Shown here: piece by piece, positions 1 through 37,493 of the stretch | Layout: each line of letters starts with the position of its first letter | How positions within the stretch are numbered: position 1 is the first letter of the stretch | NCBI GenBank assembly: GCA_963725665.1 | Contig: CAVRZA010000006.1 | Location: 64,001-128,000, forward strand | Length of the DNA: 64,000 nucleotides | Source: an uncultured Actinomycetes bacterium | GTDB taxonomy: Bacteria > Actinomycetota > Thermoleophilia > UBA2241 | Direction: 5' to 3' | Notes under the pieces: generated by a model | What the model saw: only the letters and a program-made list of their open reading frames with translations | Told to the model about the DNA's origin: nothing | Databases searched by the model: none | Program-made: the position numbers and the translations under genes

Positions 1-626
1 CGACCAACCGCTACCACCTCGGTCCCTCGGTCCTTGCCATGACCTACGTCTCGGAGGACCACTCGGAGTTCGTCGCCCTGGCCAGACCGTTCATGGAAGC
101 CCTTGTGGACCGCACGGGGGAGTCGGTCACGCTCGCGATCGAGGTCGATGGGGCCCCGGTCTGCGTCGACACGATCGACACGACGCGACCCTTCAAGCGG
201 CAGACGGCTCGCGGTCGAGTCATCGGAGATCTAGCATCTGTGCACGGCAAGGTCTTCGCGGCCTTCAAGCCGGACGAGCAACGAGCGGCCATCCTCGCTC
301 GACCCCATCCCAAGTTGACGCCGAACACCGTCACCGATCCACAGGCTCTGGCCGACGAACTCGACCTGATCGCGCGCGAGGACCTGGCTTTCGACGTGGA
401 AGGCCTCTACGTCAGCACGTGCGCTGTCGGGTCCCCGATCCGTGACCAACTGGGCGAAGTCGTCGCGGCGATATCCGTGGTCATGCCCACAGGTCGATTC
501 GGGCCCGAAGAACGCAGACTCTGCGCCGAAGCCGTGAAGAGCATCGCGACGTCGCTCTCCGCGTACCTTGGCTGGAATCCCCCCGAGTCATCACGAGACG
601 GTATCCCGTCACACGCCAGTGTGTAG
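1..626 (+). CDS. IclR-family transcriptional regulator (5'-truncated by window edge)
   Basis: C-terminal IclR effector domain (TGESVTLAIEVDG, SVHGKVFAAF, CAVGSPIRDQLG); close paralog of the IclRs at 13927 and 21901. Confidence 0.93.
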   Translation, partial: TNRYHLGPSVLAMTYVSEDHSEFVALARPFMEALVDRTGESVTLAIEVDGAPVCVDTIDTTRPFKRQTARGRVIGDLASVHGKVFAAFKPDEQRAAILARPHPKLTPNTVTDPQALADELDLIAREDLAFDVEGLYVSTCAVGSPIRDQLGEVVAAISVVMPTGRFGPEERRLCAEAVKSIATSLSAYLGWNPPESSRDGIPSHASV

Positions 627-699
627 TCAACCCTTGGTCCAGGTCCCCTCGATGGCGAAAGGACAGCGATTGAGATGACTGAAGGAAACCGCAAGAAGA

Positions 700-3307
700 G
701 TGGACGTGAGCGTCGACAAGACCGCGATCAAGTCCCTGGCCATGGGCGGCCTGCTCGGGGGCGGCGGAGAGTGTGTCGTCGACGTCAAAGACGGCAAGGC
801 CGTCAGGATCAGGCCGCTCCACTACGACTGGAAGTACGACGGCGAGCAGTTCAACGCCTGGAAGATCGAGCGCGAACGGCGAGACGCTCGAGCCGCTGAT
901 GAAGGCGCTGCCCGCCCCCTTCTCGCTCGCCTACAAGAAGAGGACCTTCTCCCCGAACCGCATCAAGTATCCCGATGAAGCGGGTCGACTGGGACCCCGA
1001 CGGCGAGAGGAACACCCAGAACCGGGGCAGGAGCAAGTACAAGAGGATCTCCTGGGACGAGGCGACGGACATCATCGCCGCAGAGATCCGGCGCATTCAC
1101 AAGAAGTACGGCCCGCTCTGCCATCCTGGCCCAGGGAGACGGGCACGGTGAGTGCAAGACGATCCACACGCCCCACGGCCATCAGGCACGTCTCCTCGAC
1201 ATGATGGGCGGATTCACGCAGCAGGTCCGCAACCCGGACAGCTGGGAGGGCTGGTACTGGGGCGCCAAGCACGTCTGGGGTCAAGGCTTCCAGGGCATGA
1301 TGTCGCCGGCCGCGAACCTCATCAAAGACATCTCCGAGAACGCCGACATGGTCCTCAAGTGGGGCTGCGACGAGGAGACCACGCCCTGGGGCTTCACGGG
1401 GCAGTACGCCAGCCCGCATCTCGCAGTTCTGGACGCGAGCCGGCATCAAGCAAGTGTACATCTGCCCGGACCTCAACTACGCGGCCGCCGTCCACGCCGA
1501 CAAGTGGATCCCCATCCTCCCCAACACCGACGCGGCGCTTCAGCTGGCCATCATCTACGTCTGGCTCACCGAGGACACCTGGAACAAGGAGTACGTCGAG
1601 ACGCACGCCGTCGGCATCGACAAGGTCGCCGACTACGTCCTCGGCAAGGAAGACGGCATCGCCAAGACGCCCGAGTGGGCATCCGCCAAGTGCGGAGTGC
1701 CCGAGTGGACCATCAAGGCGTTGGCCCGGGAGTTCGCCAAGAAGACGACCTCCATCGTCCACTACTTCGGCGGCTCCTTCATCAGAGGGCCGTACTCGCA
1801 TGAGCCCGGGCGGCTGGAGTGCGTGCTCCTGGGCATGCAGGGGCTCGGCGGGCCCGGCGTCCACCAGTGCCAGATGACCTACTTCGGCATGCCGAGGGCC
1901 GAAGGCCTGCGGAGCGTGCGCTTCTTCAACCCCGAGTTGAGTGAACGTCTCACGAAGCCCTGCTGGACCACGGTCCACGCCTGGGGACCGCAGCTCATCC
2001 CCAAGACGCTGATCCAGGACGCCATCCTCAAGCCGCCCCTCACGTTCCACGGGAGCGGCGGCCAGGAGTGCCAGACAGAGGAGCAGTTCGAGAAGTTCAC
2101 GTATCCCATCGCCAAGGAGAAGGGCGGCACTCCCATCCACATGATGTGGACCGACACCCCGTGCCGCATCACGTGCTGGAACCACGGCAACTGGACCATC
2201 GAGGCCATGCGCGACCCGAGCATCGAGTGCGTGGTCGCCCAGCATCCGTGGCTCGAGAACGACTGCCTCTACGCCGACCTGATCCTGCCGGCCAACACGA
2301 CGCTCGAGGTCGAGGACATCGTCACCAACACCCGGCAGGGCCCGCACTTCCAGAGCGTCGCCATCCAGGAGCAGGCCATCCAGCCGATCGGCGAGTCGAA
2401 GAGCGACTACGAGATCGTCCTGGCGATCGCCGAGAAGCTGGGGATGGGCGAGCAGTTCAGCGGCGGCTTCACGGTCCGCGATCTGCAGAAGATGGTCTTC
2501 GACAACATGCGCATGGAGGAGCTCACGACCTGGGAGGAGTTCGAGGAGAAGAAGTACTACGTCTACTCCGTCGCCGAGGACTGGGAGAACGACCCGCCCG
2601 GCTTCAGGCTCTTCTACGAAGACCCGAAGGCCAATCCACTGCCGACTCCGACGGGCCTGCTGGAGTTCTACTCCGAACGCCTGGCGCAGCACTTCCCGGA
2701 CGACAAGGAGAGGCCGCCTTACCCGAAGTGGATCGAGAAGGGCGAGACTCACGACGAGCGGCTCTCGAGTGAGAAGGCCGGCATGTTTCCCCTGCTCGTC
2801 ATGTCGAACCACCCGCGCTGGCGCACACACGCTCAGGGCGACGACATCAGCTGGGCCAGAGAGACACCCACCGGCAAGGTGCTCGGCTTCGACGGCTACA
2901 GGTACGAACCGGTCTGGATCAATCCGATCGACGCTGCAGGAGCGCGGCATCAAGGACGGCGACGTGGTCAAGATCTTCAACGAGAGAGGCATCGTGCTCG
3001 TCGGGCGCGCGCGTCTGGGAGAGGATCATGCCCGGCGTGGTCTACGTCGACCACGGGGCTCGCCACGACCCGATCATCCCCGGCAAGGTCGACCGCGGCG
3101 GCGCCATCAACACCATCGCACCGAACGGGATCACCTCGAAGAACGCGTGCGGCCAGGCTACGAGCGGCTACCTGGTCGACGTGCAGAAGGTCACGAAACG
3201 ACGAATGGGAAGCCTGGCGCAGGGACCACCCCGAGGCCTTCGCCAGGGAGTACGACCAGGCCGCCGGGCTGCGCTTCGACGCTTGGATCGAGGGAGGCAC
3301 GGAGTAG
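700..3307 (+). CDS. bis-MGD Mo oxidoreductase, pyrogallol transhydroxylase (AthL)-like alpha subunit, divergent paralog 1; several apparent sequencing frameshifts
   Basis: VDVKDGK..RIRPLHYD, RNPDSWEGWYWG (Ser ligand), HADKWIPILPNTDAAL, SNHPRWRTHAQGDD, DRGGAINTI; no N-terminal Fe-S motif or Tat signal; pieces in ORFs 700, 773, 1201, 1454, 2769, 3028. Confidence 0.9.
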
Positions 3308-4126
3308 ATGAAGGCATTCGTTATTGACGTCGGCCTCTGCGTGGGCTGCTACGCCTGCCAGTTCGTCTGCAAAGACGAGCACGTCGGCAACGACTGGTCG
3401 CCCATCGCCAAGCCTCAACCCGACACCGGCCAGTTCTGGATGAGGCTCGACGAGCATATCCGGGGCACCGTGCCCAAGGTCGAGATGCACTACGTGCCGA
3501 ACCCGTGCATGCACTGCGACGAGCCCCCGTGCATCCCCCCCTGCCCCGTCGAAGGCGCGATCTACAAGAGGGACGACGGGCTGGTCATCATCGACTCGGT
3601 CAAGTGCACCGGCTGCAAGGCGTGCGTCGATTCCTGCCCCTACGACGCCATCTATTTCAACGAGGACCTCAACCTCGCCCAGAAATGCACCGGCTGCGCC
3701 CACCTGCTCGACGGCGGCGAGTGGAAGACGACCCGTTGCGCCGATGCCTGCCCCACCGAGGCCATCAAGTTCGGGGAGGAGAGCGAGCTCACGGACCTGA
3801 TCGCGCAGGCCGAGGTGCTCAAGCCCGAACTGGGAGCCAAGCCCCGGGTCTACTACCTGAACATCCCCCGGAAGTTCGTCGCCGGCACGGTCTACGACCC
3901 GATCGAGAAGGAGGTCGTCATCGGGGCCACCTGCACCCTCGTCGGCTCCGGCGACGGCGACAAGCAGACCGTCGTCACCGACGCCTTCGGCGATTTCTGG
4001 TTCCGCGGTCTGGCGGACGGCACGTACTCACTCACGATCGACGCGGAGGGCTTCGCCGCCAAGAGCTACGCCGAGATCAGCACGGAGAAAGACGTGAACC
4101 TTGGCGACATACCACTGTCCAGATAG
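3308..4126 (+). CDS. Transhydroxylase beta-subunit-like Fe-S protein (four Cys-cluster motifs plus C-terminal beta-sandwich)
   Basis: CVGCYACQFVC, CMHCDEPPCIPPC, CTGCKACVDSC, CTGC..RCADAC; KPRVYY; TDAFGDFWF domain as in BthL; abuts alpha stop codon. Confidence 0.92.
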   Translation: MKAFVIDVGLCVGCYACQFVCKDEHVGNDWSPIAKPQPDTGQFWMRLDEHIRGTVPKVEMHYVPNPCMHCDEPPCIPPCPVEGAIYKRDDGLVIIDSVKCTGCKACVDSCPYDAIYFNEDLNLAQKCTGCAHLLDGGEWKTTRCADACPTEAIKFGEESELTDLIAQAEVLKPELGAKPRVYYLNIPRKFVAGTVYDPIEKEVVIGATCTLVGSGDGDKQTVVTDAFGDFWFRGLADGTYSLTIDAEGFAAKSYAEISTEKDVNLGDIPLSR

Positions 4127-4213
4127 GCGACTAGCGGGCGAGAGCGGTCGCCGCGAGACCACTCGCGCGGCCTGCCACGAAGACCCAGTCCGTGGCAAGG
4201 AGGACATCAGGAC

Positions 4214-5005
4214 ATGAGATGGGGAACGGTCATCAACCTGGCGAAGTGCATGCGCTGTCACGCCTGCATCGCCGCCTGCAGGATCGAGCACTTCCTGCCC
4301 CTCCACGTGACCTGGTCGAAGCTGATCGCCTACGAAGTGGACGAGGGTGGCGAGGTGGACGTCACCACGTACCCGGTGCGCTGCAACCAGTGTGCCGACG
4401 CTCCGTGCACGCACGTTTGCCCCACCGAAGCCTCACACCAGCGCGAGGACGGTATCGTGGTCATCGACTCGGACAAGTGCATCGGATGTCGCTACTGCGT
4501 CATCGCCTGTCCGTATCAGAACCGCACCTTCCTCTCGAAGGACAAGAACCCCGGCTACTTCCCCGGGTACGAGAAGACCAGGTTCGAGAAGAAGGGCGAG
4601 AAGCTCTACCCGCACCAGGTGGGCACCACCGAGAAGTGCAACTTCTGCGCCGAGCGTCTCGACGCCGGCATGGCTCGCGGCCTGCAACCGGGCAAGGACC
4701 GCGACGCCACGCCGGCGTGCGTGAACGTCTGTCAGGCGCGCGCCCTGACCTTTGGCGACCTCGACGACCCTGACAGCGACGTCTCGATCCTGATCCGCAA
4801 GTACAAGGGCTACCAGCTGCGCGCCGAATACGGGACGGATCCGTCGGTCTACTACATCGACTACAGGCTGGGCGGCTCGCCCTCGAACAAAGCGCCGCGT
4901 GAAGCTCAAACGGGCCATCACATCCAGCACCTCAGCTCCGTGGACCGCGACGCGTACCGGCGCATCTACGGGCACGAGCAGGCTGAGGCGGAGGTGCAGT
5001 CATGA
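4214..5005 (+). CDS. DmsB/NrfC-like 4Fe-4S electron-transfer subunit
   Basis: CMRCHACIAAC, CNQCADAPCTHVCP, CIGCRYCVIACP, KCNFC..PACVNVC, FGDLDDPDS. Confidence 0.93.
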   Translation: MRWGTVINLAKCMRCHACIAACRIEHFLPLHVTWSKLIAYEVDEGGEVDVTTYPVRCNQCADAPCTHVCPTEASHQREDGIVVIDSDKCIGCRYCVIACPYQNRTFLSKDKNPGYFPGYEKTRFEKKGEKLYPHQVGTTEKCNFCAERLDAGMARGLQPGKDRDATPACVNVCQARALTFGDLDDPDSDVSILIRKYKGYQLRAEYGTDPSVYYIDYRLGGSPSNKAPREAQTGHHIQHLSSVDRDAYRRIYGHEQAEAEVQS

Positions 5006-5982
5006 AGGTCCAGACCAACCGACAGTGGATCACCACCCACGAGTGGATGGTCAAGCCCATGCGCCAGAAGGAGTGGATCTCGGGCAAGGGCATCCTCGTG
5101 TGGCTCGCCGAGGTCTTCTCCGCGCTCGGCATGGGGACGCTACCTCGTCGGCCTGCTCGCGGGGCTCGGCGGCATCACCACCGGCGCGTGGTGGGCGACG
5201 GTGCTCGGCTGGGCTGCTCATCGTGCTCTTCAAGCTGCCGCTGCACCTGGTGTACCTGGGCCGGCCGCTGCGCTTCTGGCGCGCGATCCCGCCGTTCACC
5301 AGAGGCGTGGAAGACGTCGTGGCTCGCCCGGGGGATGTTCTTCTCGATCGTGTTCGTCGGCGCCGGCTTCCTGCAGATCGTCTTCTGGTACCTGCTGCAT
5401 TGGGTCGATCTGAGCGCCTCCGCCGCCGACATCGTGACGGTGCTCGCCTGGATCGTCGGCATCGTCGCCGGCGTGTTCATCATCCTCACCGGCGTCTATT
5501 GCGGCTTCGCCATGAGCTACTGCAAGAGCCTGCCGTTCTGGAACACCGGGCCTGCTGCCGATCGTGTTCGTCATCATGGGCATCGCCGACGGTCTGGCCC
5601 TGACGATGGGCGTCAGTCTGATGACGGGCAGAGACGTTCCCATCGAGACGCTCGAGTCCTGGAGCCGTATCGTGCTCGTGGTCAACGCCCTGCTGATCGC
5701 CGGGTACCTGATCCGCGCGTACCACAGGCACTCGACCGCCGAGCTGGCCGCTCATGACCTCATCAAGGGCAGCACGGCCTGGGTCTTCTGGATCCTCCTC
5801 GTGGTCCTCGGCATCGTCACCCCCCTGGCCATCTCATTCGTCGACCATGTTCATGGCGGAGTCGAATGCCGAGCCGCTGCTGATCGTCGCGATCATCTGT
5901 CACACCGATCGGCGCCTTCGCGCTCAAGTACTCCGTCCTCAAGGTCGGCATCTACCGGTCCGTCCTTCCAGGGGTCGCGTGA
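5002..5982 (+). CDS. NrfD/PsrC-like integral membrane anchor (frameshifted)
   Basis: Multiple TM helices, LHLVYLGRPLRFWR, SWLARG, YCGFAMS..LPFWN; ends KVGIYRSVLPGVA*; overlaps Fe-S gene by ATGA. Confidence 0.82.
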
Positions 5983-6016
5983 GGACGGCCTCCGGGCCTG
6001 TCAGGAAAGGGAGACA

Positions 6017-8215
6017 ATGGCTGACCGCAAGCAGATTCTGACGACGTGCAAGAGCTGCCACGGCGGCTGCGGCGTGATCGTCACCGTCGAGGACGGCGTG
6101 ATCGTCCACATCCAGGGCAACCCCGACTCGCTCACCAAGGGCACGATGTGCTCCAAAGGCCTCTCGAGCATCCAGCACATCGACAACCCCTACCGCGTCA
6201 AGTACCCCATGAAGCAGGTCGGGCCCAAGGGCGAGGGCAGGTGGCAGCGCATCTCGTGGGACGAAGCGCTCGACACGATCGCAGACAAGATGAAGGAAGC
6301 GATCCGCGACTACGGGCCGCACACCATCGCCGTCTCGCAGGGCACCGGCCGCGGCTACAACCGCTACACGATGAAGATGGCGCGCTCTCTCGGCACCGGC
6401 AACGCCATCACGCCGGGCTACGTCTGCCACAGCCCCCGGCTTGGCCTCTACGGCCTGGTCACTGGTTACGGACGGCTGTACTGCGACTACCACGGCTGGG
6501 GAGGGGAGTTCCCCAAGACCCAGATCTCGTGGGCCAAGCAGCTGGAGATCAGCAGCGCCGATTCCGAGATGGCGGTGTGGTTCATCAACTCGCTGGACTA
6601 CTGCAAGAACCTGATCATCATCGATCCACGCGCCAGCGCCTTCGCCTCTCGCGCGACGCTTTGGATCCAGCCCCGACCGGGCACCGACTGCGCTCTGGCC
6701 ATGGGCATGATGAACGTGATCTACGAAGAGGAGCTCTGGGACAAGGAGTTCTGCGACAACTGGACCTTCGGCTTCGACGAGCTCCGCGAGCGCGTGCGGG
6801 ACTTCACCCCTGAGAAGGTCTCCGACATCTGCTGGATCCCCAAGGAGCACGTCATCGAGGCGGCGAGGATGTGGGCCATCGATACCCCCGGCTGCATCCA
6901 GGTCGGCAGCTCGCTCGAGCGCCAGGCGAACTGCGGTCACACGCTGCGCGCCATCACCTGCCTCTTGGGCCTGGCCGGCAACATCGAGCGGCCGGGCAGC
7001 ATGATCACCTGGGTGCTCCCCGAGACCGGGCTCATCGAGGACTTCTTCCTGGAGCTGCCGATCACCGACGAGATGAAGAGCAAGATCATCGGCGGCGACA
7101 AGTACAAGATGGGCGCCGCCCGCACGTGCAACCCCGACACGATGGTCAAAGCCATCAACGCCGGCAACAGCCCCATCAAGGTGTGGTTCAGCGTGGGCGG
7201 GCAGCAGATCGTGCACATGGCCAACACCAATGAGGTCGTCGCGGCCATCGAGAAGGTCGACTTCATGGTTCACACCGATCTCTTCATGGGCCCGATGGCG
7301 GAGGCCGCGGACATCGTGCTGCCGGCCGCCCACTGGCTGGAGCTCGACGACGTCTACGACATGCACCCGCGCTTCATGATCGAGGCGCACAACAAGGTCA
7401 TCGACCCGCCCGGCGAGGCGAAGGCCGACGCGTGGATCTTCAACGAGGTCGGCAAGCGGGTCGTTCCCGACAAGTGGTTCGACGACGTCGAAGACATGCT
7501 CGATTACGAGGTCAGAAAGGGCAAGAACGGCACCATGACCTGGAAAGACTTCAGCGAGCAGCTGGTCAGCGGCTGCTTCGGCCCCGACCAGGTGTACTAC
7601 AAGTACAAGACCAACTACTGGAACGAAGGCGGAGGGTTCCCCACTCCGAGCGGCAAGTTCGAGTTCCACTCGAACCATCTCGAGTCGCTCGGGTACGACC
7701 CGCTGCCGGTATTCAGCGAGCCGGGCGAAAGCCCGGTCTCCACGCCGGAACTGTTCAAGGAGTACCCGCTTGTCATGAGCTCGGGCTTCCGGCAGCCCTT
7801 CTACTTCCTCGGTCAATACCGCAACATCCCCTGGCTGCGGAGCTACATGGAGTACCCGCAGTGCCAGCTGCACCCGGAGACGGCGGCGCAGTACGGCGTC
7901 GAGGACGGCGACATCGTCTGGATCGAGTCGCCGCGCGGCCGCGTGCGCCAGAAGCTGCGTGCCTTCCCGGGGATCAAGAAGGGCGTGCTCATGGCCACCG
8001 CCAACTGCTTCTACCCCGAGGAGCCGGCCAAGGGCTACCACGGCGTCTTCATCTCGAACCCCAACGTCCTTACGAGCAACGACCATCTCGACCCGATGTA
8101 CGGCTCACCCGATCTCACCTGCCTTCTGTGCAAGGTCTACAAAGCCAGGCCGGAGGAGCTGAAGGAGAGGGTCTTCCAGACCGAGGAGTACGGCACCGTA
8201 CCTTCCCCGGAGTGA
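6017..8215 (+). CDS. bis-MGD Mo/W oxidoreductase, acetylene hydratase-like clade, catalytic subunit
   Basis: RBS GGAAAGGGAG; CKSCHGGC..MCSKG 4Fe-4S motif, RISWDEALD, GYVCHSP Cys ligand, ADIVLPAA, TPSGKFE, SNPNVLT..DPMYGSPDL; no Tat signal. Confidence 0.9.
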   Translation: MADRKQILTTCKSCHGGCGVIVTVEDGVIVHIQGNPDSLTKGTMCSKGLSSIQHIDNPYRVKYPMKQVGPKGEGRWQRISWDEALDTIADKMKEAIRDYGPHTIAVSQGTGRGYNRYTMKMARSLGTGNAITPGYVCHSPRLGLYGLVTGYGRLYCDYHGWGGEFPKTQISWAKQLEISSADSEMAVWFINSLDYCKNLIIIDPRASAFASRATLWIQPRPGTDCALAMGMMNVIYEEELWDKEFCDNWTFGFDELRERVRDFTPEKVSDICWIPKEHVIEAARMWAIDTPGCIQVGSSLERQANCGHTLRAITCLLGLAGNIERPGSMITWVLPETGLIEDFFLELPITDEMKSKIIGGDKYKMGAARTCNPDTMVKAINAGNSPIKVWFSVGGQQIVHMANTNEVVAAIEKVDFMVHTDLFMGPMAEAADIVLPAAHWLELDDVYDMHPRFMIEAHNKVIDPPGEAKADAWIFNEVGKRVVPDKWFDDVEDMLDYEVRKGKNGTMTWKDFSEQLVSGCFGPDQVYYKYKTNYWNEGGGFPTPSGKFEFHSNHLESLGYDPLPVFSEPGESPVSTPELFKEYPLVMSSGFRQPFYFLGQYRNIPWLRSYMEYPQCQLHPETAAQYGVEDGDIVWIESPRGRVRQKLRAFPGIKKGVLMATANCFYPEEPAKGYHGVFISNPNVLTSNDHLDPMYGSPDLTCLLCKVYKARPEELKERVFQTEEYGTVPSPE

Positions 8216-8266
8216 CCAGCGCCGAAGGGGCAAATGACTGCGCAACCCGGAGTGGAGGAGGATCCG

Positions 8267-8587
8267 ATGGCGAAATACCTGATCGTGGCCACCTACAGCC
8301 CCGACGGCATGAAGGGCGTCATCAGAGAAGGCGGCAGCGGCCGCCGCTCGACCATCGCCGACATCGTGAAGAACCTCGACGGCTCGTTGGAGGCTTTCTA
8401 CTACGCCTTCGGCGAGAACGATGTGTACAGCATCGTCGATCTTCCCGACAACGTCACCGCGGCCGCGATGGCCATGCACATCACCGCGGCGGGGATGAGC
8501 AGGTGCGACGTCACGGTGCTGCTGACGCCGGAGGAGATCGACAAGGCCGCCAGGACCAAGATGTGGTTCAGGCCACCCGGGGCGTGA
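8267..8587 (+). CDS. GYD-domain protein
   Basis: MAKYLIVATYSPDGMKG..GSLEAFYYAFGENDVYSIVDLPD..LLTPEEIDKA; RBS GGAGGAGG. Confidence 0.85.
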   Translation: MAKYLIVATYSPDGMKGVIREGGSGRRSTIADIVKNLDGSLEAFYYAFGENDVYSIVDLPDNVTAAAMAMHITAAGMSRCDVTVLLTPEEIDKAARTKMWFRPPGA

Positions 8588-8670
8588 GCGACGAGCGAAC
8601 GCACAGCGGCCGCGGCCGGCGTCGGCTGAACTGGGCAATCCGCTCCCCGACATGGCGGCGGTGCCGGATC

Positions 8671-8704
8671 GGGGGAGGCTCCACGATTCGCGTGAAGCCT
8701 CCCC
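8671..8704. terminator. GC-rich hairpin between convergent operons
   Basis: GGGGAGGCTCCACG-attcg/c-CGTGAAGCCTCCCC; near-identical arms at 16201. Confidence 0.7.
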
Positions 8705-8747
8705 GCTCGTCATCAAGCCACGCGACTTCTAGCCGCGCACACCCTGC

Positions 8748-10127
8748 TCAGTACCCCTTCAGGATGTCGATCATGATGTCGGTGGCCTTCAGGGCGTACT
8801 CCCTGGGCACCGTCAGCGGAGGCATGAAGCGGAAGACGTTGGCGTGACGTCCGCAGGGAGTCATGAGGATGCCGCTGTTGAGCAGCTTAATGGCGATCTC
8901 GCCGACGTACTTGCCCTCCAGAGGCTCCTTGGTCTTTCTGTCGGCGACGACCTCGATGCCGACCATGAGACCGTTGCCGCGCACGTCGCCGATGCACTTC
9001 ACCTGCGGCATGGCGTCGACGAAGAGGCCCTTGATCTCCTCGCCCAGCGTGGCGGCCCGGCCCATGAGGTCCATCTGCCGGGTCGGTGATGATGTCGATG
9101 TTCGTCATGCAGACCTCGCAGCCCATGGCGTTGCCGGCGAAGGTGCTCGGCTGCGAGCCCTCCGCCAGGCTGGCCTCCATGTCGGCCCGATACGTCACGC
9201 CGGCCATGGGCATGTCGCCGCCCATGCCCTTGCCCCAGGTCAGCATGTCGGGGACCACGCTCGAGTGCTCGATGGCCCACATCTTGCCGGTGCGCCCGGC
9301 GCCGGCCTGGACCTCGTCGGCGATGTAGAGACAGCCGTACTTCTCGCACGCCTGCTTGACGAGCTCCAGGAACTCCGGAGGTGGAACGACGTAGCCACCC
9401 TCGCCCTGCTGCGCTTCGACGATCACCGCAGCCACGTCGTCGAGACCTGTATACGGCGTGTTGAGCACGTAGTCGACGTACTTGCCGCACTGCACCTCGC
9501 AGTCGGGATAGGTCATACCGAAGGCGCAGCGATAGCAGTAGGCATAGGGAAGGTGGGTGACGCCCGGGATCAGGGGTCCCCAGCCGTGGCGATAGCCGTA
9601 CCCGGTCGTCAGGGCGGCGCTGCCGCACCAGACGCCGTGATAGGCGCCCTGGAAGGCGATGATCTGCGATCTGCCGGTGTGAGCGCGGGCGAACTTGATG
9701 GCCGTCTCGACGGCGTCGACTGCCGGCCTGATAGACGGCCGTGTGGCAGTTGCCCCTGAGGCCCTCGGGCATGACCCCGGAGACCTTCTTGGCCAGCTCG
9801 ATGCGCTTGGGGTTGGTGATGTCGGTGGTGTGCATGATGACGTCGCACTGACGGCGGATCGCCTCCAGCACCTTCGGGTGGCCGCGGCCGACGGCGTTGA
9901 CGGCGACGCCGGCGGCCATGTCGATGTAGAGGTTGCCGTCGGCGTCGTAGACAGTGACTCCCTTGCCGTGCTCCAGGATCACCGGGAAGCCGCCGCCGCC
10001 ACGAGTGAACGACTCGTACTTGGCCGACTCGGCCATCAGCGCAGCTGACCTTGGGACCGGGGACCTGCGTCACCATGCGGGGCGCATCGGGGAAGGACAA
10101 CTCCATCAGTTCGGACTCAGCGATCAT
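8748..10127 (-). CDS. Class III PLP aminotransferase (GabT-like), frameshifted
   Basis: DADGNLYIDMAAGVAV..GRGHP, FQGAYHG, EAQQGEGG, ADEVQAGAGRTG, MLTWGKGMGG, DVRGNGLM, FRFMPPL. Confidence 0.9.
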
Positions 10128-17907: not shown

Positions 17908-18723
17908 CTACGCATACGTGGTTTCGTTGAGCAGGGTCGCGAAGGCCCCGATCGGCGTGTTGGCCAGCTCGCCGAAGTCGTCGGACTCATAGCCGAGGAG
18001 TTTGCCGGTGGTCTTCTTCTGGCGCCAGTCCAGAAGCACCACGCCGAGCGTGGGCACGATCTTCTCGCGCCAGACGAACAGATAGAGCTCATCGTCGATC
18101 TTGTAGTAGTGACAGCGATCGGTGTCGGCAAGGCCCTTCTCACTGCCGGCCAGACACTGCCACGTGTACAGCTTCTCGTTCAGGTAGATGTGCTCGTACG
18201 TCTCTGTGCGACTGTAGACGTACTTGACCCTCTTGCCCACCAACTCCGTCGTAGGTGCATGATGGCACTCCTCGGTGTCGAACGGCCTGTCAATGGCCGC
18301 TCTCTGGAACTGGACGCCGACTGCCGTCAGGTCCGCTCCTTCGCTGGCGAGACGGTAGGCGCTCTTCTGGACCTCAGATTCGGCAGGCAGCGTGCCGGTA
18401 ACGGCCGTCGCCCTGCCGGCTGCGAGATCGAGGACCAGGCTGACCGACGTGGCCCGCTGAGCGCGACTGACATAGTCCACGAAGTAGAAGGCGTCCCTGA
18501 AGCAGGTCGCGGAGTAGATCTCTTCGCCCCTGGCGCCTTTGGCGGAGCCCTCCAGGACCTCCCAGCGCAGCTCATGCGCGTCGGCGAACGTGAAACGGGT
18601 GGAGCTGCCGTCTTCGAAGAAGAGCTGCAGGGATTGACCGCTCAAGGCATCTACGGCCGCGAGTACGTTCTCGCTGATCCCCTTCGCCAGCTCCCCGACC
18701 TGTATGAATCGCAGATCATCCAT
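17908..18723 (-). CDS. moaF: MoaF-family protein (monoamine-regulon MoaF of Klebsiella type)
   Basis: ELVGKRVKYVYS..YEHIYLN..YTWQCLAG.EKGLADTD..LYLFVWREKIVPTLG. Confidence 0.85.
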   Translation of the reverse strand: MDDLRFIQVGELAKGISENVLAAVDALSGQSLQLFFEDGSSTRFTFADAHELRWEVLEGSAKGARGEEIYSATCFRDAFYFVDYVSRAQRATSVSLVLDLAAGRATAVTGTLPAESEVQKSAYRLASEGADLTAVGVQFQRAAIDRPFDTEECHHAPTTELVGKRVKYVYSRTETYEHIYLNEKLYTWQCLAGSEKGLADTDRCHYYKIDDELYLFVWREKIVPTLGVVLLDWRQKKTTGKLLGYESDDFGELANTPIGAFATLLNETTYA

Positions 18724-18753
18724 CGGCCGCTCATATCCTCCCAGCCACCGATG

Positions 18754-19948
18754 TCATCCGGCGGCTTCCACGACGGTCGTCATGCCCTGCCCGCCGGCGA
18801 TGCAGATCGTCGCCAGCCCGTACCTCGTGCCTCGTTTGTGCATCTCGTGGAGCAGCGTGGTCAGGATACGGGCGCCGGAGCAGCCGAGGGGGTGACCCAG
18901 CGCGATCGCCCCGCCGTTGACGTTGACGATCTCCCGGTTCAGCCCGAGCTCCTCGATCACCGCCAGGCTCTGCGCCGCGAACGCCTCGTTCAGTTCGATC
19001 AGACCGATATCGTCCAACGTGAGGCCGGCGCGCGCGAGAGCCTTGTGCGTCGCCGGGACGGGCCCGATGCCCATGATCTCGGGCCCGACGGCGGCGACCG
19101 CCTGACCCCGAATGGTCGCCATTGCCCTCACGCCCCGACGCCGCGCTTCCGCCGCCGACATGATCACCAGGCAAGCGGCGCCGTCGTTGCGACCCGACGC
19201 ATTGCCTGCCGTCACGCTGCCACCCTCCTTGAACACCGCGGGCAGCTTGGCGAGCTTCGCCATGCTCGTCTTCCGCGGGTACTCGTCCGTGTCGAAGACG
19301 ACCGCGGGTCCACTGCGCACCGGCACCTCCACGGGGACGATCTCGTCCTTGAACCGGCCTTCCTCGATGGCGCGCCGGGCCCGCTCCTGGCTCTCGAGCG
19401 CAAACTCGTCCTGCTTCTGCCGAGAGATGCCGTACCTGTCGGCGAGGTTCTCCGCCGTCAGTCCCATCGTGAGGTCGCCGTACACCTCGTATGGCTGCGA
19501 TCGCGGCTGGCTCTCGGTGTTCGGATCCACGAGGACGGCGTTGCCTGAGACGAGACCGAAGCGAGCCCCTCTCAGGTAGTAGGGAGCGCGGCTCATGCTC
19601 TCCACGCCGCCGGCCACGACGACGTCGGCTTGGCCGGCTAGAATGGACTGCACGGCGTTGTGGACCGCTTGCAGCCCAGAGCCGCACTGGCGCATGACCG
19701 TGTATGCGGGGACCTCGACCGGCAAGACCGGCTTTGAGAGCCGCCACGCGGGCCAGGTTGGCGGCATCCGCGCTTTGCTTGGTCTGCCCGAAGATGACCT
19801 CGTCGACGTGTGCCGGCTCTATCCCCGCGCGCTCGATCGCCGCGAGGATCACGACCTTGGCGAGCTCCTCCGGCTGCACGTCCTTGAGCGCCCCGCCGAC
19901 CTTGCCCACGGCGGTACGGACCGCAGATGCGACGACGACTTCAGTCAT
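18754..19948 (-). CDS. Acetyl-CoA C-acyltransferase (thiolase), one frameshift
   Basis: [53 protein letters not shown]. Confidence 0.94.
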
Positions 19949-19964
19949 GGCGGATCGCATAGCG

Positions 19965-20737
19965 TCAGGCGTACGCCATGTTCCCGCCGTCGATGTTGAG
20001 GATGGTGCCCGTGACGAAGTCCGACGCCGCCGACGCCAGGAAGACGACGGGCCCCACGATGTCGGCGACGGTGGCCATGCGGCCCATGGGCACGTTCTGC
20101 AGCATCCTCTCGTAGCGAGCCGCCTCGTCCTTGATGCGCTGCTCTGTCATGGGCGTCACGGTGATGATCGGGGCGATGGCGTTGACCAGCACGCCGTGAG
20201 GCGCCAGCTCGCAGGCCAGTTGGCGGGTGATCATGTCGACCGCGCCTTTGGTCGCACAGTAGGCGCTGTTGCCGCCCGACGTGCCTCGCTGGCCTCTGAC
20301 CGACGACAGGCTGATGATCTTGCCGCCGCCCTGCTTGACCATCTGTGCACCGAACGCCTTGCAGCAGATCATCACTCCCCTGACGTTGACGGCGAAGAGC
20401 TTGTCCCACTGGTCCATAGGGAACTCCGTCGCGGGCGCCTTGAAGTTGACTCCCAAGGCATTGACGAGGATATCGACACGCCCCATGTCGGAGACCGCCT
20501 TGGCCACCAGCTCCTCGACGCTCGTTCTCCTGGGTGCAATCGACCTGGTAGACCCCGACCTTCTGGCCCGTGGTCGCCTCGATCTCGGCAGCCGCGGCGC
20601 TCGAGAGTGGCCGGGTTGACGTCGGCGATCGCCACCCGGGCACCGTAGCGCGCGAGCCCGTCCGCTATGGCGTTGCCCATGCCTCCGGCGCCGACGACGA
20701 CGGCGCTCTTGCCCTCGAGCGAAAACAGGTCATCCAT
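19965..20737 (-). CDS. Short-chain dehydrogenase/reductase, frameshifted
   Basis: LFSLEGK..VVGAGGMG, ADVN, NALG, SSVRG, YCATK, VFLASAASDFVTG. Confidence 0.92.
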
Positions 20738-20783
20738 GGCCCATCTCCTTTCCTCCACCACTGCTCTGCGCTCTTCTGCGCGC

Positions 20784-21638
20784 CTATCTCTTCGCGACGC
20801 CCAGTATCTGTCTGGTCTCGTCGGGTGTGGCGGGTTCGATGTTCAGCTCCCTGGCGATGCGCACCGACCGCTCGACGAGCTGGGCGTTGCCCTCTGCCAG
20901 CACGCCCCTCGAGTAGTAGATGTTGTCCTCCAGCCCGACCCGGATCGCCCCGCCCATGACCATGCCCATCGTCGTCAGCGGCAGTTGGGCGGCCCTGGTC
21001 GCCGTCGTGTTGAAGTAGCAGTCGTCGGGCAGGAACTGATGCATCGACATCAGCGTCTCCGGGCTGGCCTCGACGGCGCCTTGATACGCCATCCCCAGCA
21101 CGAGGTTCACGTAGTACGGAGGATCGATCAGCCCCTTGTCTATCAGGTTGCGCACGTCCCGATACATGCTCTGGGAGTAGCACTCCATCTCGGGCTTGAT
21201 GCCGAGATCTTGCATCTTGGCGGCCCACGCCTCGATGTCTCTCGTGAGGTTGGAGAACGGCAAGCCGGCCTGGGGGCCAGTCTGGCGCATGAGCGTGCCC
21301 ATGTTGAGAGACGCCATCTCCGGTTTCGCCTCGAGGCACGCTACTCGCTCCTCGATCGTCAGGTTCGACCCGCCGCCGGTGGAGAACTGGATGATGATCT
21401 CACTGCACGCGCCGCGCACCGCGGCCATGATCTCGGCGAACTTCTCCCTGGTGCCGCAGGGCATTCCATGCTCGTCCCGGGCGTGGATATGGACGATCGC
21501 GGCGCCGGCGTCGTAGCACTCGGCCGCCGCGCGCGCGATCTCGTCCGGCTGCTCGGGGACGTTCGGGTTGTTCTCCTTGCGGACGAAGGCGCCGTTGAGG
21601 GCTGCAGTGATGATGACTTTGCCGGCGGGCAGTCTCAT
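20784..21638 (-). CDS. Beta-keto acid cleavage enzyme (BKACE/DUF849, Kce family)
   Basis: IITAALNGA, AGAAIVHIHAR, STGG, PEMASLNMG, IRVGLEDN, ATPDETR. Confidence 0.93.
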   Translation of the reverse strand: MRLPAGKVIITAALNGAFVRKENNPNVPEQPDEIARAAAECYDAGAAIVHIHARDEHGMPCGTREKFAEIMAAVRGACSEIIIQFSTGGGSNLTIEERVACLEAKPEMASLNMGTLMRQTGPQAGLPFSNLTRDIEAWAAKMQDLGIKPEMECYSQSMYRDVRNLIDKGLIDPPYYVNLVLGMAYQGAVEASPETLMSMHQFLPDDCYFNTTATRAAQLPLTTMGMVMGGAIRVGLEDNIYYSRGVLAEGNAQLVERSVRIARELNIEPATPDETRQILGVAKR

Positions 21639-21772
21639 GAATCCCTTGTCTCCGAGCTAACGCTCTCGCAGATCACATCTCGTGCCTCCGCGAGGACATC
21701 GAAGAGAGCATCATCGCTCTCTCTCGAGATGTCCTCCCCGCTGAGCGGCACGCCAGGAACAGGTGTAGGTGA

Positions 21773-21900: not shown

Positions 21901-22748
21901 TTACCGCCCCGTCCCGGCATACCCGAAGAACTCGGAGAGCGACGCGGCGGTCGCCTTCACCGCGTCGGCGCAGGCCTGTCTCTCCTCGAGACCGAAGCGA
22001 CCGGTCGGGACCACGAGCCCCAGCGTGGCGATGACGTTTCCCATCTGGTCGCGGACGGGCGCGACGACGGCACACGTGCCGATGTCGCGCTCTTCGAGGT
22101 CGAACGCCACACCCTCGCTCCTGACCTTCTCCAGCTCGCGCGCGAGCTCGCGCGGGTCCGTGATCGTCCTGGGCGTGCGTCGAGCGCGCGGCTGGTTGAC
22201 AATGGCTTCTCGTTCGGCGTCCGACTTCCAGGCCGCGAACGTCTTGCCGTGGGCGTTCGCAGTGTCGCCGATGACGCGCCCGACCGCCACCTCGCGTTTG
22301 AGGGGCCGCGTCGAGGCGACCATATCGACGCAGACCGCCACTCCGTCGACCTCGACCGCCAGAGTGGCCGACTCACCGCTCGACTCAACCAGCGATTCGA
22401 GATACGGGCGTGCGATCGCCACAAGCTGGGCGTAGCCTTCGGACAGGTAGATCGCCGCCAGCAGAGCGGGGCCTAGATGGTACCTGCCGGTCACCGGATC
22501 GGTGACCAGGTAGCCCGCACCCTGCAGGGTGCGGGCCATGCGGTAGCCGGTCATGCGCGGCAGGCCCAGTCGCGCCACCATCTCGTCGAGGCTCCACTCG
22601 CGATGCTCGGCGTCGAAGAGGCCGAGCATCGCGAGCCCCTTGGCCAACGCCCGGACTACGAACGGGATCATCGCCGTCGGCGCTGCCCGACGCTGCCCCC
22701 AGCCGGCCCGCGTTTGCGCTTGCTCCTGGATCGATCCCCTTTTGCCAT
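21901..22748 (-). CDS. IclR-family regulator (read in-frame with upstream AOR in this sequence)
   Basis: VRALAKGL..LPRMTGYRMARTL, GESATLAVEVDG, CAVVAPVRDQMG; own RBS GAGGAAG and ATG at 22748 is out of frame. Confidence 0.88.
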
Positions 22749-22763
22749 GACTTCCTCGATGTC

Positions 22764-24477
22764 CTAGCTCGGCGAACACGCTGTCGAGGTCTGCCTCGCT
22801 CACGTCGAAACGATTCCCGGTGGGCGGCAACGCCTCGTTCACCATGAAGGCCGGCAGCCTGTCGTCGGCCGCGGTGAAGCCGGCGCGACGGTTGAAGTCG
22901 CGCTCCTGCTTCACGATCTGGCTGCCCAGAACGATGAGGTAGTCCTCAGGCAGCGCTTTACCGGTGAGGGCCGCCACGGCGGAGACCAGTTGGCCCTGGA
23001 GCTCCGGCATGTCGAGCGGGGGCAGGCACGCGAACAGGCACATGCCCAAGGCATCGATCGCGGCGAAGTAGGCCTGCAGGAACTGCGACATCTGCGCCTG
23101 CCCCTCCGACGAGCTTGGGTCGTAGGCCGGGTTGGCGGGGCTGGGCAGAGCGTTGCCCGCTGTGTGGTCCCCACCCTGAGGGCTGGTCGCGTAGGTGACC
23201 CCGGTGCCCTTGAGCACCCTCGGTTCCCAGGCGGCGATCCCCTGGCCCTTGACGGCGGGTATGCGGGCGACTCCGAGCGCCGTGCCGGTGGCGACGCAGC
23301 CGTTGGCGATCAGCCTGGCGTTCTCGTCGCCGGAGGTCAGCTTGCCGAGCAGCTCGTGCACGGCAGCACCGTCGCCCCAGGGGAGCAGACCGCCCTCCAT
23401 GGCGACCCCGACCGCCGCCCCAATCTCGATGGTGTCGAGCCCGAGGTCGTCGCAGAGACGGTCGATGCGCGCCAGTTGATCGAGGTCGGTGATGGCGCAG
23501 TTCGAGCCCAGGAGCCCCAGGCTCTCGAACTCGAAGCCCGAGGTGACCTCGTTGCCGTCTTCGTCGGTGAAGACTTGGGAGCAGTTGATCACGCAGCCCG
23601 CCATGCAGCGGTGCTTGGCCTCGCTGTTCGGGCGTTCGGCCATCAGCTCCACCAGGCGCGCACCGTTGATCTTGTCTGCGCCCTCGAACTCACCGGCCGA
23701 GAAGTTCCTGGTGACCAGGCAGCCCATGGGGTTGGCGACATCCACGAGGAAGGCTGAGCCCAGCGCCTCCAAGGCCCCCACCGCCGGGTGCGAGCGGATG
23801 CCCTTCGAGAAGCTAGAGGCCGCGGCCTTCATGGCGGCCGGGTCGGCGGGCTTCACAGCACGACCGCCGGCATCGTCGATGACGATGGCCTTGAGGTTCT
23901 TGGCGCCCATGACGGCGCCCAGGCCGCCCCGGGCCGCGGCACGCAGCCGGAAGTCGGGACTCGTCACCGTGACCGACGCCGCCTTGAGCTGCAGCTCGCC
24001 CGCGGGCCCGGCACAGATGATCGACACACCTTCGCCGTAGCGCTCGCGAAGTCTCTGCACGGTGTCACGATTCCCGAGCCCCTTGAGCTCGCCGGCCGCC
24101 ACCAGCGCACCTCCGTCCGCCGCCACCTCAAGGAGGCTGAGCGAGTCGGCCCGACCCGTCACCTTGATGCCGCGCAGGTCGAGTTGGGCCATCTTGCGGG
24201 CGGCCGACCCACCTGCGTTGGCCTCTTTGATGCCGCCCGTCAGCGGGCTCTTCGCCCCGACCGAGAGCCGGCCGCTGTTGGGGATCGACGTACCGGCCAG
24301 GATGCCCGCGGCGTACACCAGGACGTTGTCGGGACCGAGCGGATCCGCCTTGGGGTCGACCTCCTGGGCCACGATGGCAGACGTAAGGCCGTGACCGCCG
24401 AGCTTCTCCAGCTCTTCGGACAGCGCCTCCCTGGTCACCGTGCCGTGGGTCAAGTCAACGTTGAGAAGGTCGGCCAT
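22764..24477 (-). CDS. Aldehyde:ferredoxin oxidoreductase (tungstopterin AOR family)
   Basis: AKSPLTGGIKEANAGG, GPAGE, AARGGLGAVMGAKNLKA, CMAGCVINC, EFES, CDDLGLDTI, DALGMC, ERDFNRRAG, DRLP. Confidence 0.92.
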
Positions 24478-24586
24478 GGTCCATCACATCCTTCACGGAG
24501 CAGTTGGCGGCTCTTCAGTGCGTAACTTGGGCGCTGGCCTCGATGCCTGGACGCCGCAGCAATCCCGTTCGGCGCGCTGCACGCTA

Positions 24587-31771: not shown

Positions 31772-32608
31772 CTATCCCGCCTGGCGCACGGGCAGCGCGC
31801 CCAGTGTGACACTCTCGCCAAGCGTCACCGGCATGCTCAGCGACTGGTAGCCGGCGCCCGCGAGCGTGAGCGTGTACTCCCGGCCGGGTTCGAGCTTGTC
31901 GATCAGGAAGGTGCCGTAGTTGTCGGTCGTCGCTCGGCCGATCTCCCGGCCGTCGAGGGACACAACGGCCGTGACCCCCTCGGCACACTCGTCGCGCGCC
32001 TCGTCGACGACACTCCCGGCCACGAAGACCTTCGTCCATCGGTGCAGGTTCTCATAGTAGACACGTGGCTTGGTGCCCAGGCTGTCGCGGTACCGTTCGA
32101 GGCCTTCGTCGGCGACGCGGCGCGCCATCTCGTCGTCCTCGGCCATGACCAGCTTGATGGCATCCGTAGGGCAGACCTGCGAGCAGCGCGTCTCCGTCCA
32201 CCCCTGGTCCAGAAGGTGAGCGCAGCCGGTGCACTTCTGCGCGAGCTGCTTCTCCTCGTTCCAGTAGATGGCGTTGTACGGACAACTGGTGGCGATCTCG
32301 CTGCGGCCGACCGCCTTCACCGGGTCGATGAGCACCACGCCGTCATCGCGCTTGTACACGGCGCCGTCGTCGGTGAGGCAGGGCGCCTCGTCACAGTGCA
32401 TGCACGGCATGGGCAGGTAGGCGGTCTGCACGATCGGGTACTGGCCGCGTTCCCTGCGCTTGATGTCCATCCAGCGCTGCCCGTGCCACGGCTGGCCCGC
32501 CGAATACGGCGGGAAGTCGTTCTCGACGAACTCGTCCTTGTCGGCCAGGTAGCAGTCGTTGCAGTCGTGGCAGCGGGCGATGTCGATGATCATGTGCCAG
32601 GTCTTCAT
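31772..32608 (-). CDS. bthL: Pyrogallol-phloroglucinol transhydroxylase beta subunit (BthL-like)
   Basis: IDIARCHDCNDC, RWMDIKRRERG, PCMHCDEAPC, IDPVKAVG (third motif degenerate as in BthL), TKPRVYY.NL. Confidence 0.85.
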   Translation of the reverse strand: MKTWHMIIDIARCHDCNDCYLADKDEFVENDFPPYSAGQPWHGQRWMDIKRRERGQYPIVQTAYLPMPCMHCDEAPCLTDDGAVYKRDDGVVLIDPVKAVGRSEIATSCPYNAIYWNEEKQLAQKCTGCAHLLDQGWTETRCSQVCPTDAIKLVMAEDDEMARRVADEGLERYRDSLGTKPRVYYENLHRWTKVFVAGSVVDEARDECAEGVTAVVSLDGREIGRATTDNYGTFLIDKLEPGREYTLTLAGAGYQSLSMPVTLGESVTLGALPVRQAG

Positions 32609-35420: not shown

Positions 35421-35451
35421 TTGACAGGCCCAGGGCCCTCGCTGATAGTCT
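35421..35451 (+). promoter_or_regulatory. Sigma70-type promoter for modABC
   Basis: TTGACA (35421) and extended -10 TGnTAGTCT (35443-35451) just before the riboswitch. Confidence 0.55.
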
Positions 35452-35460
35452 CGATCTCGT

Positions 35461-35593: not shown

Positions 35594-35598
35594 CGGGG

Positions 35599-37456: not shown

Positions 37457-37493
37457 CCGCCCGGGCGACGTTACCCGCAGGCGGAGGCCGACC

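Follow-up and report, generated by a model that had tools for sequence, protein, structure and literature searches.

Why should two different enzymes of the molybdenum- or tungsten-bis(pyranopterin guanine dinucleotide) type (Mo/W-bisPGD) be encoded in one run of genes, with a single Fe-S and membrane module between them? The question is raised by the beginning of a 64,000-nucleotide stretch of DNA (the window; contig CAVRZA010000006.1, positions 64,001 to 128,000 of the forward strand) from an uncultured Actinomycetes bacterium of the Thermoleophilia. Here the genes for an AthL/BthL-like pair (alpha and beta), a NrfC-like Fe-S protein, a NrfD-like membrane protein, a catalytic subunit of the acetylene-hydratase clade (cat2) and a GYD-domain protein follow each other on one strand behind a gene for an IclR-family regulator. 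All the parts belong to known families and the arrangement is uncharacterised. The reading favoured here, plausible although held tentatively, is that of an IclR-preceded operon for two Mo/W-bisPGD enzymes, a ring-hydroxylating alpha-beta and a quinone-linked, dehydroxylating cat2 complex, which together would convert plant polyhydroxybenzenes to phloroglucinol without oxygen.

The run opens with iclR (3–626, + strand), cut at its 5' end by the window start (Pfam IclR_C at 3.8e-30; 63% identity to its counterpart ahead of alpha in L001, one of the related loci surveyed below). On the same strand follow alpha (675–3307), an AthL-family Mo/W-bisPGD subunit devoid of the N-terminal Fe-S domain, with the Pfam domains AhtL-like_1st, Molybdopterin and Molydop_binding on its frame pieces, the largest of which matches the large subunit of pyrogallol hydroxytransferase (PDB 4v4c_A, E 1.9e-52); and beta (3308–4126; 272 aa), a BthL-like ferredoxin with four complete Cys groups, a Fer4_11 domain and a C-terminal CarboxypepD_reg-like domain, which matches the small subunit (4v4c_B, E 9.6e-56). 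The third gene, nrfC (4214–5005; 263 aa), encodes a four-cluster Fe-S subunit without signal peptide, a ferredoxin of the DsrO/ArrB/TtrB/NrfC kind (best NCBIfam model DsrO at 2.7e-51, under all curated cut-offs) whose 16 Cys are all invariant in 39 sequences. It is followed by nrfD (5002–5982, stop codon TGA at 5980–5982), a frame-broken gene for a NrfD/PsrC-like membrane subunit of about eight helices (Pfam NrfD at 1.7e-7 on one piece), and by the intact cat2 (6017–8215; 732 aa), a Cys-ligated Mo/W-bisPGD catalytic subunit with an N-terminal 4Fe-4S cluster (Molybdop_Fe4S4, PF04879, at 1.7e-12; Molybdopterin; Molydop_binding; no NCBIfam cut-off reached). The run ends with an accessory GYD-domain gene in one open frame (8234–8587; PF08734 at 1.5e-22).

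Spacing within the run is tight: 48 nucleotides (nt) between iclR and alpha, 0 between alpha and beta, 87 between beta and nrfC, an overlap of 4 between nrfC and nrfD, 34 between nrfD and cat2 and 18 between cat2 and GYD. The original prediction, made from the sequence alone, had described six co-directional, tightly spaced genes, and all six are present with gaps of -4 to 87 nt. It had placed the alpha start at 700, which is corrected here to the ATG at 675, with iclR upstream on the same strand, and it had counted 16 Cys in beta, where the total is 17 and 16 of them fall in the four cluster-binding groups. The beta-nrfC spacer (4127–4213), named in the same place as a possible break in the unit, carries the Shine-Dalgarno sequence AAGGAGGA near its end, before the nrfC start, and falls short of that in seven orthologous loci by 37 nt, in gaps of 8, 15 and 14 nt; a simple scan detected neither a promoter nor a + strand terminator in it. 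More generally, no sigma-70-like promoter site was present in 1–9200 by a scan restricted to the sigma-70 consensus, which is weak for an actinobacterium, the same simple scan gave no + strand terminator in any intergenic gap, and a Rfam scan detected no riboswitch in 1–9000.

At E <= 1e-20, 4268 of 8000 scored candidates are relatives of cat2, the best 120 being 70–86% identical and all of them generically named. A locus survey with one genome per species gave 353 pattern matches for cat2, of which 228 were confirmed; the best 80 of the 228 were kept with up to 10 kb on either flank of cat2, and all recurrence counts below refer to these 80 loci. According to their record labels all are metagenome-assembled genomes (MAGs), from Thermoleophilia and other Actinomycetota, Desulfatiglans/Desulfobacterales, Acidobacteriota, SAR324, one Betaproteobacteria, Dehalococcoidia and Chloroflexia. 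The alpha-beta, nrfC and nrfD genes were located by tblastn with the L001 proteins, and a linked alpha-beta pair was defined by at least 55% identity to the L001 pair.

The conserved unit is nrfC-nrfD-cat2, with alpha-beta as a frequent, non-obligatory neighbour and GYD as an accessory. The nrfC gene lies directly 5' of cat2 in 76 of the 80 loci and nrfD is present in 77, the misses being contig ends (L007, L035, L048, L061) together with two loci that are without any nrfD (L057 and L059). The alpha-beta pair abuts the unit in 36 loci in three arrangements: upstream, as in the window, in 12 (L001, L002, L004, L005, L006, L008, L009, L016, L018, L036, L038, L070); downstream and co-directional in 23 (L040-L042, L044-L046, L049-L052, L054, L056-L059, L061-L068); and downstream and convergent in one (L022). 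It stands 7–10 kb off in 7 more (L013, L014, L015, L017, L034, L037, L071). Of the 12 loci with the upstream order, 11 have an iclR gene in front of alpha and the other (L004) is cut within beta; GYD follows cat2 only in the window and in two of the loci (L008, L020). The six-gene synteny first proposed thus recurs as iclR-alpha-beta-nrfC-nrfD-cat2, and not as a six-gene unit that includes GYD. Across all loci alpha-beta and nrfC-nrfD-cat2 move as blocks and are never interleaved; in L040, L051 and L064 one nrfC-nrfD-cat2 module is followed by two alpha-beta pairs (64–65% and 61–62% identity to L001 alpha).

In a tree of cat2 built from the window and the 65 loci with an intact open reading frame (ORF) of 700–775 aa in the frame of the match, three groups are seen: a Chloroflexota group in which the linked pair is almost nil, a group with the downstream order (23 of 24, all but L047), and an Actinomycetota group that contains a subclade with the upstream order. 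The two main gene orders accordingly fall in separate clades, Thermoleophilia on the one side and Desulfobacterales, Desulfatiglans, Acidobacteriota and SAR324 MAGs (record labels) on the other. Acetylene hydratase-like and pyrogallol hydroxytransferase genes have been reported on Chloroflexi scaffolds, with no link drawn between them (Hug et al. 2013; PMC3971608). The single membrane quinone module of the original prediction proved not to be obligatory: L057 (6669–15000) and L059 (6513–15706) read SDR-cyclase-cyclase-nrfC-cat2-alpha-beta, without nrfD.

What kind of enzyme is alpha-beta? The alpha of L036, to which the window alpha is 75% identical when read across its frame breaks (652 of 866 aligned residues, with no in-frame stop), aligns over its full length with the transhydroxylase large subunit 4v4c_A (433 bits, E 1.5e-128, residues 31–843 against 14–873). 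It keeps Asp174-Ser175 and His144 but has Pro for Arg153 and has lost the stretch around Tyr404. In transhydroxylase alpha we take Ser175 to be the Mo ligand, acting with Asp174 and His144, and the corresponding motif PDSWEGW and the aligned His are seen in the window alpha's own translation. The second AthL-like protein of L001 (alpha2) scores 1177 bits against 4v4c_A, with Asp174-Ser175, His144, Arg153 and Tyr404 all kept. The window holds such a pair at 35200–31781 (- strand), whose alpha2-type gene (35200–32620) is 67–68% identical to L001 alpha2 and which is probably, to judge from these comparisons, the true pyrogallol-phloroglucinol transhydroxylase of the organism.

The beta subunits part along the same line. 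In BthL of Pelobacter acidigallici group III is short of three Cys and group II of its fourth, which makes one cluster fewer than in the window beta. The beta2 of the second pair (31781–32593, - strand) retains 11 of the 16 cluster Cys and has lost the same group as BthL, and the beta3 of a third pair (42204–43010) has 15 of 16. Among the 32 betas that were aligned, the window beta has the full set of 16 cluster Cys, as have 28 of the other 29 linked ones; the exception is L059, with 15. The module-linked alpha-beta is thus placed by its residues in a clade distinct from the transhydroxylase-like pair, with a full electron wire. A net oxidising hydroxylase of the resorcinol-hydroxylase kind would require such a wire.

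AthL/BthL (PDB 4V4C) resembles the linked pair in its full-length homologous alpha with an AhtL-like first domain, no Fe-S domain and the Asp-Ser and His144 residues, and in a homologous beta with a C-terminal barrel domain. It differs in having three clusters in BthL instead of four, in retaining the Arg153 that is Pro in the linked alpha and the Tyr404 stretch that the linked alpha lacks, and in that the window pair is linked to a membrane module; moreover, a much closer transhydroxylase-like pair is encoded in the same genome at 35200–31781. Resorcinol hydroxylase (RehLS/RhLS) of Aromatoleum anaerobium and the 3,5-dihydroxybenzoate hydroxylase DbhLS of Thauera aromatica AR-1 are AthL/BthL-family enzymes that oxidise rings and are membrane-associated (PMC10084136, PMC7028382). 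Compared by description and not by sequence, they are like alpha-beta in family, whereas their route goes on by oxidation, with a DoxX-anchored dehydrogenase and a pyruvate-dehydrogenase-like complex, and not by way of phloroglucinol genes. A fused beta-NrfD protein was absent from the 14 longer beta relatives (E <= 1e-40; 1715 candidates), most of which read as alpha-beta run-ons; a coupling thus gains no Rosetta-stone support, and such an absence is weak evidence. A complex prediction for L001 NrfD and NrfC with beta as partner scored 0.02 against a mark of 0.32, a result that is uninformative either way.

The second catalytic subunit has acetylene hydratase as its best PDB match (2e7z, E 3e-90, 306 bits; the next match reaches 188 bits and 1.7e-54). 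Its Cys137 aligns with the tungsten-ligand Cys141 of that enzyme, and the cluster motif reads C-K-S-C-H instead of C-Q-S-C-D, with His15 at the position of Asp13. Gly and His stand at the positions of Ile14 and Ile142, residues which we take to form the hydrophobic pocket of acetylene hydratase. Both C-K-S-C-H-G-G-C and C137-H138-S-P-R are invariant in 13 diverse cat2 relatives. With Asp13 replaced by His and Ile14 and Ile142 by Gly and His, the identification of cat2 as an acetylene hydratase was rejected. Size, domain order, the N-terminal cluster and the Cys ligand are shared with 2E7Z; the His at Asp13, the alteration of the presumed pocket residues, and the Fe-S and membrane partners are not, acetylene hydratase being a stand-alone soluble monomer. 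It had been considered that both enzymes might fall in characterised clades with unrelated functions; in these residue tests neither catalytic subunit passes as its namesake.

Beside acetylene hydratase, only catechol dehydroxylases have been reported among characterised enzymes (PMC7028382). Those of Eggerthella lenta have a 4Fe-4S protein and a membrane anchor as partners, carry twin-arginine translocation (Tat) signals and remove a ring hydroxyl reductively (PMC7028382). Taken by description, the Eggerthella and Gordonibacter dehydroxylases (Dadh, Hcdh, Cadh, Cldh, Dodh) are like cat2 in being Mo-bisPGD enzymes that have acetylene hydratase as their nearest neighbour, a criterion applied in the same source (PMC7028382); neither Dadh nor Cldh is among the PDB matches of cat2. 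Those of E. lenta are exported with Tat signals, unlike cat2, which has no Tat signal and about 730 aa. The 3,5-dihydroxybenzoate operon of T. aromatica AR-1, whose first enzyme is an AthL/BthL-type hydroxylase, also contains an acetylene-hydratase-clade homolog, and mutants in it grow poorly on the substrate (PMC7028382). The earlier view that the arrangement is known from no characterised system has therefore to be narrowed: for an AthL-type hydroxylase and an acetylene-hydratase-clade protein encoded in one operon this is the nearest precedent, while no description of the arrangement itself was found in the literature searched, subscription journals lying outside its coverage. The hydroxyhydroquinone dehydrogenase BtdLS of Thauera/Aromatoleum was considered as a counterpart of cat2-NrfD and rejected, as BtdS is a 135-residue DoxX protein (PMC10084136).

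On which side of the membrane would these proteins work? The N-termini of cat2 (MADRKQILTTCKSCHGGC, with the cluster motif from residue 10), nrfC (MRWGTVINLAKCMRCHAC), beta (MKAFVIDVGLCVGC) and alpha (MTEGNRKK, no twin arginine) leave no space for a signal peptide. Within the first 45 residues of ORFs taken from the leftmost start codon, a procedure that may create spurious N-termini, a twin-arginine-like motif occurs in 0 of 65 cat2, 1 of 67 nrfC, 3 of 32 beta, 1 of 33 alpha and 12 of 69 nrfD orthologs, and the nrfD match that was inspected is a conserved TRRQW at the N-terminus of NrfD. NrfC aligns to the models of the exported DsrO, TtrB and NrfC from about profile position 40 onward. In the NrfD of L009 a crude hydropathy scan gives eight helices after the merging of one overlapping call, and the counts of Lys plus Arg, taken from the N-terminus through every second loop to the C-terminus, are 7, 5, 1, 3 and 3 (19) versus 0, 1, 0 and 0 on the remaining loops (1). 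Because of this distribution, the positive-inside rule would place both NrfD termini in the cytoplasm. DmsC and PsrC have the reverse orientation.

In the sulfite:quinone oxidoreductase SoeABC the peripheral subunits are thought to lie on the N-side, with SoeC inverted (PMC8076601). The cat2-NrfC-NrfD complex likewise looks cytoplasm-facing with an inverted NrfD, and it would be a second case of the SoeABC kind of inversion. SoeABC and the polysulfide reductase PsrABC, both NrfD-type iron-sulfur molybdoenzymes, are built on the plan of the module: one catalytic subunit that carries a cluster, one Fe-S subunit with four clusters and an eight-helix NrfD-like anchor, all encoded together. As has been proposed for SoeABC, the peripheral subunits of the module are without export signals and its anchor looks inverted. 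They differ from the module in that it has the order B-C-A, that cat2 comes from a different clade, and that another Mo enzyme, which brings a four-cluster subunit of its own, is genetically attached. Two further elements of the original prediction, that neither catalytic subunit has a Tat signal and that the system faces the cytoplasm, are in keeping with the N-termini of alpha and cat2, the 65 cat2 orthologs without the motif, the NrfC alignment and the charge distribution in L009.

The neighbourhood suggests what the enzymes act upon. Phloroglucinol degradation is carried out by four enzymes, namely an SDR reductase, a PF04199-type 'cyclase' hydrolase, a 3-hydroxyacyl-CoA-dehydrogenase-like enzyme and a BKACE-family lyase, which perform the steps named phloroglucinol reductase, dihydrophloroglucinol cyclohydrolase, dehydrogenase and lyase (PMC10470551). 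Within 10 kb of the module an SDR gene occurs in 29 loci, a 3-hydroxyacyl-CoA dehydrogenase gene in 23, a BKACE gene in 18 and a PF04199 cyclase gene in 5, and at least one of cyclase, BKACE or a MoaF-like protein is encoded in 31. Because genes of these pathway families lie so close at many loci, the module is tied to phloroglucinol metabolism even where no alpha-beta adjoins it. The window itself is a polyphenol island, with two more AthL/BthL pairs, four IclR genes and a gene for a tungsten-type aldehyde oxidoreductase, and with MoaF-like, thiolase, SDR and BKACE genes in a row at 17911–21656 (- strand; SDR, BKACE and thiolase at 18.8–21.7 kb). As a side observation, the latter set is phloroglucinol-pathway-like, with the MoaF-like protein where the PF04199 cyclase would be expected; a MoaF-like gene is found near the module in 9 of the 80 loci.

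The genes present, their recurrence, the missing export signals, the set of clusters and the neighbourhood are observed; the substrates, the direction of electron flow and any contact between the two enzymes are what we infer in the favoured reading. The cat2, NrfC and NrfD proteins would form a three-subunit complex of the PsrABC type turned inside out, as has been proposed for SoeABC, with cat2 and NrfC on the cytoplasmic face and electrons exchanged with menaquinone through NrfD. Like its catechol-dehydroxylase cousins, cat2 would most likely strip a hydroxyl from the ring reductively. The alpha-beta enzyme would be a water-dependent, redox-active ring hydroxylase and not a net non-redox transhydroxylase, sending two electrons out through its four clusters, the fourth and distal of which, in beta, would hand them to a partner. 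Dehydroxylation would then take up the electrons of hydroxylation, which would pass straight from one Fe-S subunit to the other or by way of the quinone pool as a buffer, and the sum would be a hydroxyl shift, that is, a transhydroxylation divided over two enzymes. Candidate inputs are pyrogallol-, hydroxyhydroquinone- or gallate-type compounds, with phloroglucinol as the product. A closed electron loop between both enzymes would fit the nrfD-less loci L057 and L059, which keep nrfC-cat2-alpha-beta together. Of the hydroxylase/dehydroxylase relay on the quinone pool that had been proposed, the recurrence and the cytoplasmic face stand; the obligatory nrfD and the inclusion of GYD do not.

A bolder version goes further and, taken whole, is rather unlikely. 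In it the system would be a split transhydroxylase in which alpha-beta adds a hydroxyl group from water while cat2-NrfC removes another, with the two half-reactions connected by nine Fe-S clusters and menaquinone serving as buffer through the inverted NrfD. That would allow every plant-derived benzenetriol or benzenetetrol to be isomerised to phloroglucinol without the tetrahydroxybenzene co-substrate of the classical enzyme, and the system would have spread by gene transfer through the Actinomycetota, Desulfobacterota, Acidobacteriota, SAR324 and Chloroflexota (record labels) of anoxic soils and sediments.

Several points weigh against the favoured reading. As written in the window, alpha and nrfD are frame-broken. 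No alpha-beta lies in the available DNA at 37 of the 80 loci, of which 23 have at least 7 kb on both flanks and 14 less than 3 kb on one, and nearly all Chloroflexota loci are among the loci without the pair; since the module occurs without alpha-beta at these 37 loci, cat2-NrfCD is autonomous and an adjoining alpha-beta is not needed. The roles assigned to Arg153 and Tyr404 as substrate/co-substrate pocket residues of transhydroxylase, to Asp13 as a catalytic residue of acetylene hydratase, and to the group-III (distal) cluster as the one presumably beside the membrane anchor in DmsB, are background assumptions. The helix calls are crude, most NrfD orthologs giving 8–12 overlapping segments (3–14 over all 69). 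It is possible, if on the whole doubtful, that two independent enzymes share catabolic islands and exchange no electrons, cat2-NrfCD acting by itself on some phenolic, either as a menaquinol-dependent reductase or as a dehydrogenase that reduces quinone, and alpha-beta being a soluble enzyme with its own acceptor. The 37 loci just mentioned would be expected from this, as would the stand-alone alpha-beta-type pairs of the window (39601–43010 and 35200–31781), the blocks that never interleave and the lack of a beta-NrfD fusion among the 14 longer beta relatives. It accounts less readily for adjacency in two orders across separate clades (36 loci, with 23 of 24 in the downstream-order clade), for a linked beta that keeps a distal cluster in need of a partner, and for the nrfD-less loci in which nrfC-cat2-alpha-beta still stay together.

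An oxidative route of the resorcinol/hydroxyhydroquinone type is improbable. Here alpha-beta would hydroxylate a dihydroxybenzene, cat2-NrfCD would oxidise the product or another intermediate, and both would feed the quinone pool for anaerobic respiration. The proposal draws on the likeness of alpha-beta to the membrane-associated resorcinol hydroxylase in family and in full electron wire (pathway: PMC10084136), on the acetylene-hydratase-clade gene that T. aromatica AR-1 needs for normal growth on 3,5-dihydroxybenzoate (PMC7028382), and on SoeABC, the architectural twin, which oxidises (PMC8076601). The neighbouring genes, however, are of the phloroglucinol type for reductive ring opening and not those of the pyruvate-dehydrogenase-like hydroxybenzoquinone system, and the hosts, by their record labels, are mostly fermenters and sulfate reducers from anoxic soil and sediment. 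In such hosts menaquinone would not be reduced by the hydroxyhydroquinone/hydroxybenzoquinone couple, whose potential is too positive. The known hydroxyhydroquinone dehydrogenase, moreover, is anchored by a protein of the DoxX type and not by NrfD (PMC10084136). Least credible of all is that cat2 is a non-redox hydratase whose cluster is merely kept reduced by NrfC and NrfD; acetylene hydratase is its closest solved relative (E 3e-90) and the Cys ligand is kept, but the replacement of Asp13 by His and of Ile14/Ile142 by Gly/His is invariant in 13 sequences, and a four-cluster subunit in 76 and an NrfD anchor in 77 of the loci are the signature of electron transport. There is finally a very small chance that the organism is losing the operon through decay and that alpha and nrfD are true pseudogenes, a matter that turns on the nature of the frame breaks.

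These breaks were mapped by DNA alignment of window positions 675–8215 with seven orthologous loci (L036, L009, L001, L005, L008, L002, L016). Eight single-base insertions are found in the window alone in alpha (698, 874, 970, 1119, 1412, 2938, 3003, 3194) and six in nrfD (5140, 5214, 5302, 5548, 5843, 5905); the eight-locus alignment, which ends before the GYD gene, contains no single-base deletion in the window and no single-base insertion in beta, nrfC or cat2. What speaks for decay is this concentration of 14 frame-breaking insertions in two genes, with beta, nrfC and cat2 free of them and GYD open; the density is very uneven (14 in 3.6 kb vs 0 in about 3.8 kb of neighbouring genes). Against it, all 14 are of the +1 type, with neither deletions nor in-frame stops, and the read-through protein is still 75% identical to its orthologs. 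The same +1 change occurs at 10046, 9718 and 9078 in an unrelated class-III aminotransferase gene (8748–10069, - strand) and near 33910 (33905–33913) in alpha2, with a possible further one at 35195, which points to a systematic consensus error. All frame breaks mapped in the window are single-base insertions. The insertions in alpha and nrfD are therefore probably consensus errors and not decay, because they are of a single type that also affects unrelated genes and is not bound to homopolymers, as in long-read assemblies.

The cat2 module is both common and unusually conserved, with 228 confirmed places in contigs taken at one genome per species and 70–92% identity across phyla, while its database names are generic throughout. 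Oxygen-free breakdown of phenolics bears on the carbon locked in peat and sediments and on the 'enzyme latch' idea (PMC10470551). If the two enzymes are paired as the favoured reading has it, there would be a reason for the Fe-S clusters in the beta subunits of the transhydroxylase family, a second inward-facing complex of the NrfD type would stand beside SoeABC, and annotation tools would gain a marker for a missing step, that from tannin and flavonoid fragments to phloroglucinol.

A few further features of the window and of the surveyed loci may be added. The sole Rfam match of the window is a Moco riboswitch (RF01055, 54.4 bits) at 35450–35608 (+ strand), followed by molybdate-transporter-like genes and MobB and then by the third AthL/BthL pair (39601–43010) and a transporter of the MFS family, the whole lying at 35450–44476 (+ strand). 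At 21904–24483 (- strand) a stop-free frame encodes aldehyde:ferredoxin oxidoreductase (AOR) domains and then a full IclR (21919–22722), probably two adjacent genes and not a fusion; in L014 an AOR and a class-III aminotransferase gene adjoin the module. In the Dehalococcoidales loci L072 (1736–7887) and L076 (4276–5301 and 16853–18187) the module is accompanied by genes for URO-D-family proteins, a carboxylesterase, an FAD-binding oxidase and a thiamine pyrophosphate (TPP) enzyme, not by phloroglucinol genes. Within the polyphenol island of the window there is also an MttB-family (trimethylamine methyltransferase-like) gene at 44539–46239 (- strand).

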